A stretch of DNA of 33,113 nt. Origin: a virus. Lineage: Duplodnaviria > Heunggongvirae > Uroviricota > Caudoviricetes. Each line of letters begins with the position of its first letter. Within the stretch, counting starts at the first letter, position 1. The stretch lies in IMG/VR virus record IMGVR_UViG_2879770953_000003, one strand, 5' to 3'. Made by a program: the position numbers. Below are positions 10,611 to 16,600 of the stretch, piece after piece.

Positions 10611-13600
10611 GTTAGAGTCTTTCAGTCTGCGATGATGGGAAATCCCGGAGTGACTGAAAGACGTTTAAGTTATGAATGATCGCTTTTTTTTGCAAAATTG
10701 CTGTGCAGAAATACTAACCTTCGGGCAGGCGATCATTCATAAGCACTCTGCTTTTATTCCGATTAACTGTGAGTGGTTTGTTGGATAGAGTGCTTTCCTT
10801 ACTGTATATATCGTTTCGCCCGCTTTTGCGGTTTTTTCTTTTCAAATCCCTTTCATTTCTCAGTGTAAAACTACGCCATCCGTTATTTGCGGAGGTGAGG
10901 CTATGAAATCCATGGACAAAATTTCAACGGGCATTGCCTACGGCACCTCCGCAGGCAGTGCTGGCTACTGGTTTTTACAGTGGCTTGATCAGGTCAGTCC
11001 GTCACAGTGGGCTGCGATTGGTGTACTGGGGAGTCTGGTTCTGGGCTTCCTGACTTATCTGACAAATCTGTACTTCAAAATCAGAGAAGACAAGCGTAAG
11101 GCTGCGAGAGGTGAATAATGTCGCCATCATTACGGTAAGCGCCCCATCAGCGACGTCTTGTGAAAATTGTCCTGTCTGGCAACAATCGCGCCCATCTATA
11201 TTGATGGACACGAACGATGAATTCCCAGACAACAAAAGATATTCCCTGCTTCCGTTCTTATTTGCCTGATGCCCTGCGTTTAAGATTTGAAGATAAACTG
11301 ACCATCCGGGCCATCGCTCAGCGTCTGGGTCTCAGTCATTCCACAATACATACGCTTTTTCAGCGATTTCTTGCATCCGGTATCGCATGGCCATTGCCCG
11401 ATTCAGTTTCATTCGCTCAACTTGACGCCATCCTTTATGCCAACAGAAAGAAGGAATTAACAGAGCCTCAAATCAGAGAAGGCTCATGGCGAAAAGAACG
11501 GCGAACCAGCTATAGCCGTGAATTTAAGGTCCGTCTGGCTAAGCAGGCGTTACAGCCTGGGGCTGTTGTTGCCCGGATCGCCAGAGAACACGATATCAAT
11601 AATAACCTGCTGTTTAAATGGAAAAGCCAGTACGAGGACGGCTTACTGAGCGATGATGACATACAGGAATGCATGCCTGTCCCGGTGGCACTGACTGATA
11701 CGCCGGAGCCGACCAGACCAGTTACAAATCCCTTCTGGCGTAACAAGCATGATGAGCGCCCTGAGGGGGCTCCCGGAAACGTCCCACGGTGCGAGCTGCA
11801 TCTTAAATCAGGTGTGGTAAAACTGTTTGACCCTCTCACTCCGGAACTGTTACGGGCGCTAATCCGCGAAATGAAAGGGGGTATCCGATGATAACGCTGC
11901 CGACCGGTACCAAAATCTGGATCATCGCTGGCATCACAGATATGCGTTGTGGCTTCAATGGCCTGGCTTCGAAGGTGCAGAACACGCTGAAAGATGACCC
12001 GTTCTCCGGGCATATCTTCGTCTTCCGGGGCCGCAGTGGCAAAATGGTGAAAATACTGTGGGCCGATCGTGACGGGTTATGCCTGTTCGCCAAACGCCTG
12101 GAACGGGGCCGCTTCGTCTGGCCGGTGACCCGGGAAGGGAAAGTGCACCTGACGCCAGCTCAGTTATCCATGCTACTGGAGGGGAGCGCGTGGCAACATC
12201 CCAAACGGACAGAACGGCCTGGCATCCGGATATAACCCGTGATAAAACAAGGGAATGAACAATGAACTCCCCGATGATATTGAGCTGCTTAAAGCCATGT
12301 TGCGTAAGCAACAGAGTCGGCTTCGACAGTATGCCTGTCAGGTCGCGGGCTATGAGCAGGAAATTGAACGGCTGAAAGCGCAACTCGACAGGTTGCGTCG
12401 TATGTTGTTCGGCCAGAGTTCAGAGAAAAAGCGTCATAAGCTTGAAAATCAGATCCGACAGGCAGAAAAACGACTGTCGGAACTGGAAAACCGGCTGAAC
12501 ACAGCCAGAAATCTTCTGGAAGATGCATCGTCAGTCACAGATTCACCTGACACCAGTCCCCCGTCAGAAAACCCGATCGCCAGTAAGCCTGAATCCCCGG
12601 GACGAAAATCTTCACGAAAACCGCTGCCGGCAGAACTTCCCCGGGAGACACATCGCCTTCTGCCTGCTGAAACCAGTTGCCCGGCCTGTGGAGGTGTTCT
12701 GAAAGAAATGGGGGAAACAATCTCAGAGCAACTGGATATCATTAATACCGCCTTTAAAGTTATCGAAACCATACGTCCCAAACTGGCCTGTAGCCGGTGT
12801 GATGTCATCGTTCAGGCACCACTTCCCCCTAAACCGATCGAACGCGGTTATGCCAGTGCAGGGTTACTTGCACGGATCCTGGTCAGCAAATATATGGAAC
12901 ATATCCCTTTATATCGCCAGTCAGAAATATACGCGCGACAGGGCGTGGAGCTGAGCCGTAATACCATGGTGCGCTGGGTATCAGAAATGGCAGACAAACT
13001 CCGTCCTCTGTATATAGCGCTGAATGACTATGTTCTGGAGGCAGGAAAGGTGCACGCAGATGACACTCTGAGGTAGCCTGAGTTTAACGGACACTCCTTC
13101 CTGAAATAGAATGGCATCAGAAGGAGCTAATAATGAGCAGAAAAACCCAACGTTACTCTAAAGAGTTCAAAGCCGAAGCTGTCAGAACGGTTCTTGAAAA
13201 TCAACTTTCGATCAGTGAAGGCGCTTCCCGATTATCTCTTCCTGAAGGCACTTTAGGACAATGGGTTACCGCCGCCAGAAAAGGGCTCGGTACTCCTGGT
13301 TCCCGCACGGTGGCTGAACTGGAATCTGAAATTCTGCAACTGCGTAAGGCGTTAAATGAAGCTCGCCTTGAGCGAGATATATTAAAAAAAGCAACAGCGT
13401 ATTTTGCACAGGAGTCGCTGAAAAATACGCGTTAATCGAACAATGGCGACAACAATTTCCCATTGAAGCGATGTGTCAGGTATTTGGTGTATCCAGGAGC
13501 GGTTATTACAACTGGGTACAGCATGAACCCTCAGACAGAAAACAAAGTGATGAGCGGCTAAAACTGGAGATTAAGGTGGCACATATCCGCACTCGCGAAA

Positions 13601-16600
13601 CATATGGAACCCGGCGGCTCCAGACGGAGCTGGCAGAGAATGGCATCATCGTTGGTCGTGACCGACTGGCACGTCTTCGTAAGGAGCTGAGGCTACGCTG
13701 TAAGCAGAAACGCAAGTTCAGAGCGACTACGAACCCGAACCACAATCTGCCAGTTGCGCCAAATCTGCTGAACCAGACGTTCGCTCCTACAGCACCAAAT
13801 CAGGTCTGGGTGGCGGACCTGACGTATGTTGCCACACAGGAGGGATGGTTGTACCTCGCTGGCATCAAAGATGTTTATACGTGTGAAATTGTCGGCTACG
13901 CCATGGGAGAGCGCATGACAAAAGAGCTGACAGGTAAAGCCCTGTTTATGGCGCTCAGGAGCCAGCGCCCACCTGCCGGGCTAATCCACCACTCTGATCG
14001 AGGTTCACAGTACTGCGCATACGATTACCGGGTCATACAGGAGCAGTTTGGTCTGAAAACATCAATGTCGCGTAAAGGTAACTGTTACGACAACACTCCG
14101 ATGGAAAGCTTCTGGGGAACGCTGAAAAATGAGAGCCTGAGCCACTATCGTTTTAATAACCGGGATGAAGCCATCTCAGTAATACGGGAATACATTGAGA
14201 TTTTCTACAATCGTCAGCGTCGTCACTCTCGTCTGGGGAATATCTCCCCGGCAGCCTTCAGGGAAAAATATCATCAGATGGCTGCTTAAAAAAAGAACAA
14301 ATGGTAGTGTCCGCTATTGCCAGTACACCTCACTCCGGTGAAAGTACTGGCCCCGGGGAACGGAAAGACGAAAACGGGTCGTCTGTGGGTATACGTCAGG
14401 GATGATCGTAATGCGGGTTCATCCCTGCCGGCAGCCGTCTGGTTCGCGTATTCGGCAGATCGCAAAGGAGAACATCCGCAGCTCCACCTGGCAAAGTATC
14501 AGGGCGTACTGCAGGCTGATGCCTATGCAGGTTATAACGTACTGTACGAAACGGGCCGGGTGAAGGAAGCCGGGTGCCTGGCCCACGCCCGCCGAAAAAT
14601 CCATGACGAGGATGTGCGCCGTCCGACAGAAATGACTCAGGAAGCGCTCAGACGGATAGCAGAGTTATACGACATAGAAGCGGAGATACGTGGCAGTCCG
14701 GCAGAGGAACGGCTTGCAGTCAGAAAAGCCAGAAGCGTCCAGTTGATGCAATCGTTGTACGACTGGATACAGTTGCAGAGGAAAACGCTGTCGAAACATG
14801 CGGAGATGGCGAAGGCGTTCGACTATATCCTGAATCACTGGAATGCGCTGAACGAGTTCTGTCGTGACGGCTGGGTGGAAATAGACAACAACATCGGTGA
14901 AAACGCGTTACGATCGGTGGCGGTTGGAAGAAAAAATTATCTCTTTTTCGGCTCAGACAAGGGAGGAGAAAGTGCGGCGATCATCTACAGTCTGCTGGTC
15001 ACCTGCAAACAGAACGAAGTGGAGCCGGAGGACTGGTTGCGCGAAGTGATCGAGAAGCTCAATGACTGGCCGTCGAACCAAGTGCATGAACTGCTGCCTT
15101 GGAACTTCTCGTCTGTAAAATAATCCTTACGCTACGTACTTCTCGGGGCGCTTACTCATTACGCAAGGCTGTTGCAGTTGCTATTGGTGGTGGGGCTATT
15201 GCCATAGCGTCTGTGCTCATCACTGGCCCAGGTGGTAACGATGGTCTGGAAGGTGTCAGCTACATACCATACAAAGATATCGTTGGCGTATGGACTGTAT
15301 GCCACGGACACACCGGAAAAGACATCATGCTCGGTAAAACGTATACCGAAGCAGAATGCAAAGCCCTCCTGAATAAAGACCTTGCCACTGTCGCCAGACA
15401 AATTAACCCGTACATCAAAGTCGATATACCGGAAACAACGCGCGGCGCTCTTTACTCGTTCGTTTACAACGTGGGCGCTGGCAATTTCAGAACATCGATG
15501 CTTCTTCGCAAAATAAACTAGGGCGATATCAAAGGCGCATGTGACCAGCTACGTCGCTGGACATATGCTGGCGGTAAGCAATGGAAAGGGCTGATGACCC
15601 GTCGTGAGATTGAGCGTGAAGTCTGTTTGTGGGGGCAGCAATGAGCAGAGTCACCGCGATTATCTCCGCTCTGGTTATCTGCATCATCGTCTGCCTGTCA
15701 TGGGCTGTTAATCATTACCGTGATAACGCCATTACCTACAAAGAGCAGCGCGACAAAAACGCAAGAGAACTGAAGCTGGCGAACGCAACCATTACTGACA
15801 TGCAGCAGAGACAGCGTGATGTTAATGCACTCGATGCTAAATACACGAAGGAGTTAGCTGATGCGAAAGCTGAAAATGAAACTCTGCGCGCTGATGTTGC
15901 CGCTGGTCGTCGTCGGTTGCACATCAAAGCAGTCTGTCAGTCAGTGCGTGAAGCCACCACCGCCTCCGGCGTGGATAATGCAACCAGCCCCCGACTGGCA
16001 GACACCGCTGAACGGGATTATTTCACCCTCAGAGAGCGGCTGATGACGATGCAGATGCAACTGGAAGGGGCACAGGAGTATATCCGCACTCAGTGCATTA
16101 AGTAGCCTTTTTATCGTGGTAAACATTTCGCAGGGTATGAGGTATTTATGCCATCACTAATCCCACGTGCCTGCCGTAAGCGTGGATGTGCAGGTACAAC
16201 CACAGACAGTTCGGGTTACTGCGATAAGCATCGCGGTGAAGGCTGGGTGCAGCACCAGCGCGGACTGAGCCGCCACCAGCGTGGCTATGGCTCAAAATGG
16301 ACGGTGATTCGTGCCCGTATTCTGAAGCGCGATAAAGGTCTGTGTCAGTTGTGTCTGCGTGTCGGTGTGGTGAGCGAGGCGAAAACCGTCGACCACATCA
16401 TCCCGAAAGCGCATGGCGGAACAGACGCAGACAGCAACCTGCAGAGTCTGTGCTGGCCCTGCCATAAAGCGAAAACAGCGCGCGAACGAATCAGGTGATA
16501 ATTATTCTCACTTGTAGGGAGGGGCGGGTCAAATCCCTGCAGCCCTGGCTGTCCGGGACCGCCCGCCAACCCTTCCTCGCATCGCCGCAGGTTCGAAAAC

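Follow-up and report, generated by a model that had tools for sequence, protein, structure and literature searches.

How does the endolysin gene of a prophage come to be struck twice, with the holin and spanin genes beside it left intact, and does such a pattern reflect decay or selection? The question is raised by a 33,113-nt stretch of viral DNA (IMG/VR record IMGVR_UViG_2879770953_000003), which we call the window, whose lysis cassette lies within a remnant lambdoid prophage at the tRNA-Ser gene serU, carrying ipaH, in Shigella flexneri. We found the endolysin gene of this cassette to be split in codon 6 by insertion sequence (IS) DNA, namely an ISSfl3 element with an IS600 nested inside it, and to carry an amber codon, TAG, at codon 125. 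Both reading frames are restored by excision, both insertion sites exist unoccupied in nature, and the same structure recurs in independent assemblies. Very probably, the double hit reflects neutral decay in a prophage that was crippled beforehand, within a genome where IS had multiplied and selection was weak.

A phage 21-type lysis cassette with a split endolysin gene

The lysis cassette, all on the plus strand, is of the phage 21/DLP12 type, with a pinholin-like S, a signal-anchor-release (SAR) endolysin R, and the spanins Rz/Rz1. The endolysin gene starts at 11118, overlapping the stop of the holin gene, and its present 5′ stump (11118..11134) holds codons 1 to 5 and two bases of codon 6, includes the left-hand TCATTACG of the 8-bp target duplication (11127..11134), and translates to MSPSLR followed by a stop. 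The 3′ part (15156..15644; R21/RrrD type; Pfam PF00959, E=6.6e-45) begins with the right duplication copy (15156..15163) and runs through the natural stop; the SAR segment is still there, as are E35, D44, and T50, the residues of the catalytic site.

Excision of the IS block together with one duplication copy gave a 498-nt, 165-codon open reading frame (ORF) whose sole blemish is the TAG at codon 125. The rebuilt protein aligned over residues 1-165 with the solved structures of RrrD (PDB 4zpu, E=2e-108) and phage 21 R (3hde, E=1.5e-107), and PF00959 spans its residues 34-156, as in the lysozyme fold of glycoside hydrolase family 24. Residues 1-30 differ from those of R21 at three positions and form a weakly hydrophobic N-terminal SAR segment, for which membrane release is predicted. 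With 4021 bp inserted in codon 6 and the TAG at codon 125, the gene is neither intact nor expressible as such, and the locus is a pseudogene of the R21/RrrD family, presumably not a functional member.

The neighbouring genes are intact. The holin (10903..11118, 71 aa) is a class II holin of the phage 21 S type that matches PF04971 over its full length (positions 1-63 of 64, E=1.4e-35), with an N terminus, MKSM, that is consistent with a dual start; its size and two transmembrane segments agree with a class II pinholin (~70 aa), for which pinhole formation is predicted. Rz, the inner-membrane spanin (15641..16105, 154 aa; PF03245, E=2.8e-52), is unchanged in L003, L005, and L013-L022. Rz1, the outer-membrane lipoprotein spanin (15861..16043, 60 aa; PF06085, E=6.4e-20), has the lipobox LVVVGC, is embedded in Rz in another frame, and has the same sequence in relatives, so that the pair has the makeup of a two-component spanin. 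A preliminary description of this DNA had claimed that the holin and spanin genes are intact, which is borne out by the holin, Rz, and Rz1 proteins matching those next to intact endolysins; in the case of the holin, the identical protein stands beside intact endolysins in the Escherichia coli loci L003 and L004. The same description spoke of a holin without endolysin. This holds for the cassette, but not for the cell, since a further prophage, whose endolysin is intact and of a different allelic type (here called F), is probably present in the same genome.

The gene order and the overlapping start and stop codons are those of the phage 21 cassette (S21, R21, Rz/Rz1) and of essD-rrrD-rzpD in DLP12, and the rebuilt endolysin shares with its counterparts there a full 165-residue alignment, the Gly/Ala-rich SAR segment, and E35, D44, and T50. 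At the DNA level, the cassette is ~91% identical to that of phage 21. In contrast to both relatives, the endolysin gene here has 4 kb of IS DNA inserted in codon 6 and bears Q125amber, and, unlike in phage 21, the cassette sits in a prophage with a P27-type terminase and sheathed-tail late genes.

ISSfl3 in the endolysin gene

The preliminary description had placed an IS66-family element with an 8-bp target duplication at 11135..15155, and these coordinates and the duplication were all verified in the sequence, with the element proving to be ISSfl3. The 4021-bp block comprises 2754 bp of ISSfl3 and the nested IS600, is flanked by TCATTACG at 11127..11134 and 15156..15163, and ends in terminal inverted repeats (IRs) that match 11/11 at their tips (GTAAGCGCCCC). 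The insertion point lies after nucleotide 17 of the endolysin ORF, within codon 6, which puts the earlier placement after codon 5 right to within two bases.

The left part of the element (11135..13068, plus strand) holds the left IR GTAAGCGCCCC, tnpA (11217..11891, PF01527), tnpB (11888..12235, PF05717), and the first 271 codons of tnpC (12255..13068; PF13007, PF13005, PF03050), as delimited by Pfam matches and a gapless 99.6% alignment to an intact copy. The right part (14333..15155, plus strand; PF03050, PF13817) holds the rest of tnpC (14336..15123, with one CTC removed) and the right IR. The three genes, with the DDE transposase PF03050 encoded by tnpC, the 8-bp duplication, and the GTAAGCG tips of the IRs are those of the IS66 family, and the DNA is 99.6-99.8% identical to copies that NCBI annotates as ISSfl3. 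Near-identical copies of ISSfl3 and IS600 are annotated as such in genomes of E. coli and enteroinvasive E. coli (EIEC). Compared with known ISSfl3, the copy shares the three ORFs tnpA/tnpB/tnpC, the duplication length, the tips, the 2754-bp length, and a TnpC that is 100% identical once rebuilt; it differs in that tnpC is broken by IS600 at codon 272, leaving the copy unable to supply its own transposase.

L003-L005 and L013-L018 have the endolysin site in its unoccupied form, ATGTCGCCATCATTACGCAAGG. In the E. coli loci L003, L004, and L005 the cassette is uninterrupted, with a single TCATTACG, at 98.3-99.8% identity, and the rebuilt 1222-bp cassette differs from that of L003 (strain FDAARGOS_944) at only two bases (99.8%), one of which is the C>T at 15519. 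The state of the site can be typed with the marker sequences CCATCATTACGCAAGG for the unoccupied endolysin site, CATTACGGTAAGCGCC for the left ISSfl3 junction, and GCGCTTACTCATTACGCAAGG for the right one.

IS600 nested in ISSfl3

The element inside tnpC, described earlier as an IS600-like copy with a 3-bp duplication, is a genuine IS600 of the IS3 family. It occupies 13069..14332 on the plus strand, is complete and apparently intact (1264 bp, TG...CA ends), and is flanked by CTC at 13066..13068 and 14333..14335, with the junction markers GACACTCTGAGGTAGCC and ACACCTCACTCCGGTG. Its orfA (13133..13435) encodes PF01527 and contains an A7G slippery site at 13384, where frameshifting is predicted, and its orfB, ending at 14289, encodes PF00665 (rve), PF13683, and PF13333, which together with the TG/CA ends are hallmarks of the IS3 family. 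The copy is 99.5% identical to an IS600 annotated in the EIEC plasmid locus L001, in line with the 99.1-99.7% found across annotated IS600 copies. Nothing notable sets it apart from IS600 elsewhere, with which it shares the 1264-bp length, the ends, the 3-bp duplication, and orfA/orfB with A7G.

Removal of IS600 and one CTC opened a 533-codon tnpC whose product is identical at 533/533 residues to WP_004967149.1, from the intact ISSfl3 in L002, and the rebuilt 2754-bp ISSfl3 aligned with the intact copy at 99.6% without gaps. In the intact ISSfl3 copies L002 and L033, the IS600 site is unoccupied, with a single CTC. The earlier view of two clean insertions with both frames restored thus stands for the 533/533 TnpC and the 165-codon endolysin alike: the rebuilt endolysin is full length against its homologues, and each insertion has real unoccupied sites in nature.

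Nesting of the same kind is seen elsewhere, in that ISSfl3 on EIEC pINV plasmids (L001, RMDEC332, and similar matches) also contains an IS600, with the same total of 4021 bp. This pINV IS600 lies ~480 bp further into tnpC, after ~1296 nt instead of the 814 nt seen here; the nesting there is independent because the position in tnpC is another one, and by these positions IS600 has hit the tnpC of ISSfl3 independently at least twice. A tnpC fragment ending in IS600 as in the window was found on 23 contigs; the distinct places shown number 7, each of them this locus. Since none of the 23 contigs holds a donor copy with IS600 at this point of tnpC and the pINV nest sits elsewhere in tnpC, the simplest and well-supported reading is that ISSfl3 probably arrived before IS600. 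In the alternative, ISSfl3 already carrying IS600 would have moved into the endolysin as one unit, with TnpC supplied by one of the other intact ISSfl3 copies. The pINV elements lend this some plausibility, their nested block being of exactly the same length, and we did consider paired transposition when the whole 4021-bp block found its match on pINV. However, we rejected it on the different position of IS600 in tnpC, and with each distinct place of the present tnpC fragment being this locus, we regard a one-unit move as extremely improbable.

An amber codon at a Dcm site

The TAG at codon 125 (15519..15521, plus strand) had been described as replacing a Gln codon, and our comparison agrees. 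Codon 125 is CAG in 12/13 uninterrupted relatives, the exception being the recombinant locus L036 with TAG, and the corresponding residue is Gln in both solved structures, RrrD (4zpu) and phage 21 R (3hde). Relatives carry AAACCAGGGCG where the window carries AAACTAGGGCG, which places the change in the ancestral context AAA-CCAGG-GCG. The change is CCAGG>CTAGG and affects the second, internal C of a Dcm site, CC(A/T)GG, as is characteristic of deamination hotspots. No dcm gene lies within the 33,113-nt window.

Amber hotspots at Dcm sites in lacI were reportedly described by Coulondre et al. in 1978, and Lieb is said to have described very-short-patch (VSP) repair at CTAGG ambers. The change here is the same as in the lacI Dcm ambers, with the second C of CCAGG becoming T and CAG becoming TAG; it differs in being a natural allele that is spread in a prophage pseudogene and not a laboratory mutant, with Dcm methylation being presumed from the sequence. 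C>T changes at Dcm 5-methylcytosine that turn CAG into amber are a classic hotspot, first seen in lacI (PMC12606429), and the CTAGG/CCAGG mismatch, when present in heteroduplex DNA, is a substrate of VSP repair (PMC2715241).

We considered the nonsense change as a statistical oddity and rejected this, because ~4.2% of all single-base changes in the endolysin gene are nonsense and the site is a hotspot, which makes one nonsense hit in a drifting prophage of ~19 kb unremarkable.

Recurrence and rearrangement of the locus

Over 12.5 kb, the window matches CP054892.1 at 100% identity. Nineteen further loci, all taken from independent assemblies, show the same junctions and TAG, and their proteins are named Shigella flexneri by their sources. 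A sequencing or assembly artefact is rejected on this recurrence. All 19 other loci with the right ISSfl3 junction have the TAG (20/20 counting the window).

Two departures from the structure of the window were found beside the loci that share it (configuration A). In configuration B (L006, L008, L009, and L010), the 9186 bp corresponding to 14333..23518 are missing, flush with the right end of IS600. This deletion, marked by the junction sequence ACACCTCAATGAGCGTG, removes the 3′ parts of tnpC and the endolysin gene, Rz/Rz1, the HNH, terminase, portal, and head genes, and truncates the tail-terminator gene; an IS600-adjacent deletion or a recombination with a second IS600 that was then lost are possible causes. 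The other departure is seen in L020/L026 (JAUTDC010000007.1), which has the right junction, the nested IS600, and the TAG as in the window, and in which ISSfl3 is bordered on its left by the yebC-ruvC region in place of the holin, with no TCATTACG. This indicates a rearrangement by recombination between ISSfl3 copies.

The terminase allele of the window is indexed in ~1,590 blocks of the assembly collection, which means that the late region is common among sequenced isolates. Exact-pattern scans found no match for the TAG allele among contigs of viruses, genomes, and metagenomes, nor for the right ISSfl3 junction in viral contigs, collections in which Shigella is probably not represented. Literature searches on ISSfl3/IS600/prophage, on ipaH/serU/prophage, and on ipaH islands turned up no paper naming this locus.

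Order of the amber codon and the ISSfl3 insertion

Exact-sequence look-ups pointed to all four combinations of TAG or CAG with an interrupted or uninterrupted gene. The uninterrupted window allele with TAG (P0001, 124 aa) is on 16 Logan contigs; an allele combining V18 with the window alleles and TAG (P0054, the protein of L036) is on 14 contigs, and the different F allele with TAG (P0053) on 69. The intact F allele (P0052) is on 832 contigs of S. flexneri, the window allele with CAG (P0016) on 29, and two 5′-truncated gene calls that start at Met61 or Val23 and have the window alleles with CAG (P0037 and P0018) are on 3 and 1 contigs, respectively.

Two of the loci with an uninterrupted gene could be read in their context. 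Compared with the window over 10594..23128, L035 (GCA_039695635.1) and L036 (Logan ERR6005103) are mosaics, F-type upstream and window-type downstream, joined within the endolysin gene. They depart from the window in the early region, in the holin (3 aa changes), and in the 5′ part of the endolysin. The switch point of L036 lies at 15218-15282, so that it carries the TAG, and that of L035 lies after 15519, leaving CAG and an intact endolysin. Both match the window 100% for 7.6 kb of the late region and have the derived markers 17061T and 18925C, and the IS-bearing configuration is seen on ancestral and derived backgrounds alike. Because these derived markers are nested inside the IS-bearing group, both loci are secondary recombinants within that group and not ancestors of it.

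These data bear on whether the amber came first, with the IS insertions then striking a dead gene, a sequence of events to which we give a little less than an even chance, with ISSfl3 first and the amber later being about equally likely. For the amber first speaks P0001, an uninterrupted gene with the exact window allele and the TAG, and so does the observation that no locus read combines the ISSfl3 junction with CAG. However, the sole readable class of uninterrupted genes with TAG (L036, P0054) is a mosaic whose late region is nested within the IS-bearing group, P0037 and P0018 hint at a state with IS plus CAG, and VSP repair at CTAGG/CCAGG together with recurrence at the hotspot can make any combination. 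Uninterrupted alleles with TAG do not prove that the amber came first, the class that could be read being a secondary recombinant, and the population comparison that had been suggested for ordering the events gave no order for the TAG and ISSfl3.

Decay or selection

Under neutral decay of the already crippled prophage, ISSfl3 would have transposed into codon 6 of the endolysin gene, duplicating 8 bp and leaving a 5′ stump that ends after 6 codons and 160 remaining codons without a start codon or ribosome-binding site of their own. A C>T change at the methylated C of the Dcm site would have turned the CAG of Gln125 into an amber codon, which would remove the last 41 residues. After ISSfl3, IS600 would have entered tnpC, duplicating 3 bp and staying intact itself, with the result that this ISSfl3 copy could no longer make its own transposase. 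Later, some strains would have lost the 9.2 kb flush with the right end of IS600, and another locus would have been rearranged via ISSfl3. The holin and spanin genes would persist only because nothing has struck them yet. With at least four other lesions in the prophage, including the lost early/immunity region, the late genes are probably without their normal induction circuit, and expression of the holin is doubtful, given that Q is intact but normal early transcription appears to be gone.

Several points weigh against this account. The lineage of the window has three derived substitutions in 15156..17557 (~2.4 kb), polarised with L003 and L005, and one of the three is the nonsense change. 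The TAG is also on the different endolysin allele of P0053, which could reflect a repeated hit at the hotspot, a gene conversion, or selection acting in parallel. A TTG at 15099, within the right end of ISSfl3, opens a 140-codon ORF in frame with the 3′ part of the endolysin, including the whole SAR segment, so the IS insertion by itself may not be fully null, which leaves room for a selected second hit. The haplotypes do not settle the order of the TAG and ISSfl3, because the hotspot and VSP repair act on the same base and prophages recombine. The origin of the TAG by spontaneous deamination of 5-methylcytosine is read from the CCAGG context, and the presumed loss of lytic activity from the reading frames, in which a product started at TTG 15099 would stop at codon 125, so that no muralytic activity is expected. 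As a separate observation, L007 has CTG in place of this TTG, which would limit the possible fusion start to one sublineage.

The first three of these points are what an adaptive disarming of the endolysin would build on, in which its loss was selected to lock in the ipaH prophage or to avoid induced lysis, the second hit followed since the first was leaky, and the pinholin was kept for a function of its own. The holin, unchanged in every locus that has it, could be taken in the same sense, but it is only 216 bp long in genomes that differ by ~0.1%, and its conservation carries no weight. Moreover, the site of the amber is a textbook mutation hotspot, the other lesions of the prophage extend to the early/immunity region, Rz/Rz1 and the head genes have been lost altogether from one set of strains, and the 832 S. 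flexneri contigs with an intact endolysin of another allele probably include the source genome. We consider adaptive disarming very unlikely.

Improbable, too, is a joint reading in which the remnant serves as a reservoir of late genes through recombination in the dead endolysin, and the second hit was selected because a leaky fusion ORF had remained in the IS-only state. Here, a lambdoid prophage resident in the same cell and carrying the F holin/endolysin allele would have crossed over repeatedly inside the pseudogene, acquiring the whole late region of the defective prophage, and the products would be L035 with an intact endolysin and L036 with an inherited amber. If so, the loss of the endolysin would be reversible at the population level.

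Neutral decay fits what is known of the host. In Shigella chromosomes, IS insertions number 229-348 and pseudogenes at least 199 (Hawkey et al. 2020, PMC7373316), and ipaH islands are conserved in S. flexneri (PMC4226921). The IS-driven decay described there (PMC7373316, PMC4226921) has the same components as found here, namely multiple IS1, IS600, and ISSfl3 hits, IS-adjacent deletions, rearrangements, and an ipaH prophage, and none of these is different in kind. Every component and process is already known, including the cassette, ISSfl3 and IS600 (both expanded in Shigella genomes, PMC7373316), the ipaH island, the Dcm amber, and prophage mosaics; the locus is ordinary Shigella genome decay, involves no new system or mechanism, addresses no open question, and has little import beyond annotation. 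It is nonetheless a clean, fully reconstructible case of IS nesting and Dcm-hotspot nonsense in a Shigella prophage remnant, and it illustrates that events cannot be ordered by haplotype when prophages exchange DNA and a hotspot is hit repeatedly. Within S. flexneri, lineages could be marked by means of the junction k-mers, the 9.2-kb deletion, and the CAG/TAG state.

The surrounding prophage

Four tRNA genes (10301..10610) lie between the Q antiterminator gene and the holin gene, and L003 and L004, the E. coli relatives, have them conserved. Their anticodons are CAU (Met by ARAGORN, Ile by NCBI in L003), UUU (Lys), UGU (Thr), and UCC (Gly); a suppressor tRNA in this cluster was considered and rejected, none of the anticodons being CUA. 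The Q gene (9392..10102) matches PF06323 nearly over its full length and is intact in the window. It contains a 27-bp tandem repeat (GGEGYEYQ) at ~9876..9930, with one copy more in L003, L004, and the deletion-type S. flexneri loci, and the NCBI annotation of L003 and L004 gives a frameshifted Q.

The integrase gene by tRNA-Ser(CGA) (2634..4926) is split by a second IS600 (3226..4489, duplication ACG), which has the same orientation as the nested copy and is 99.6% identical to it, making two IS600 copies in the window. An IS1 (ORFs 5532..6229; region ~5190..6285) adjoins a truncated exoribonuclease-like gene, and beside it ~7.4 kb of early/immunity genes of L003 (1..7432 there) have no counterpart in the window, including exo, dicB, ydfABC, relBE, repressor-like helix-turn-helix genes, and a replication gene.

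In the late region, 161 bp are missing relative to L003 at 20923/20924 (ORF 20262..22028), which fuses the prohead protease (PF04586) to the major capsid protein (PF05065) in 588 codons. A fused product of ~576 aa is found in every S. flexneri locus that reaches the region with gene calls, and both a lesion and a working fusion are conceivable. A second IS1 follows the tape-measure gene (within 28374..31803), and then a DUF4376 tail-fibre-chaperone-like ORF. The ipaH-type E3 ligase effector gene (30160..31803, minus strand; 547 aa) encodes leucine-rich repeats and a novel E3 ligase domain, which suggests that the region belongs to the chromosomal ipaH islands. At the other end (1..2581), a separate integrase gene (1..1044, minus strand), cut off by the edge of the window, lies by a tRNA-Asn gene and is followed by an mtfA-like peptidase M90 gene and a tRNA-Ser gene; a second integrated element may adjoin the prophage.

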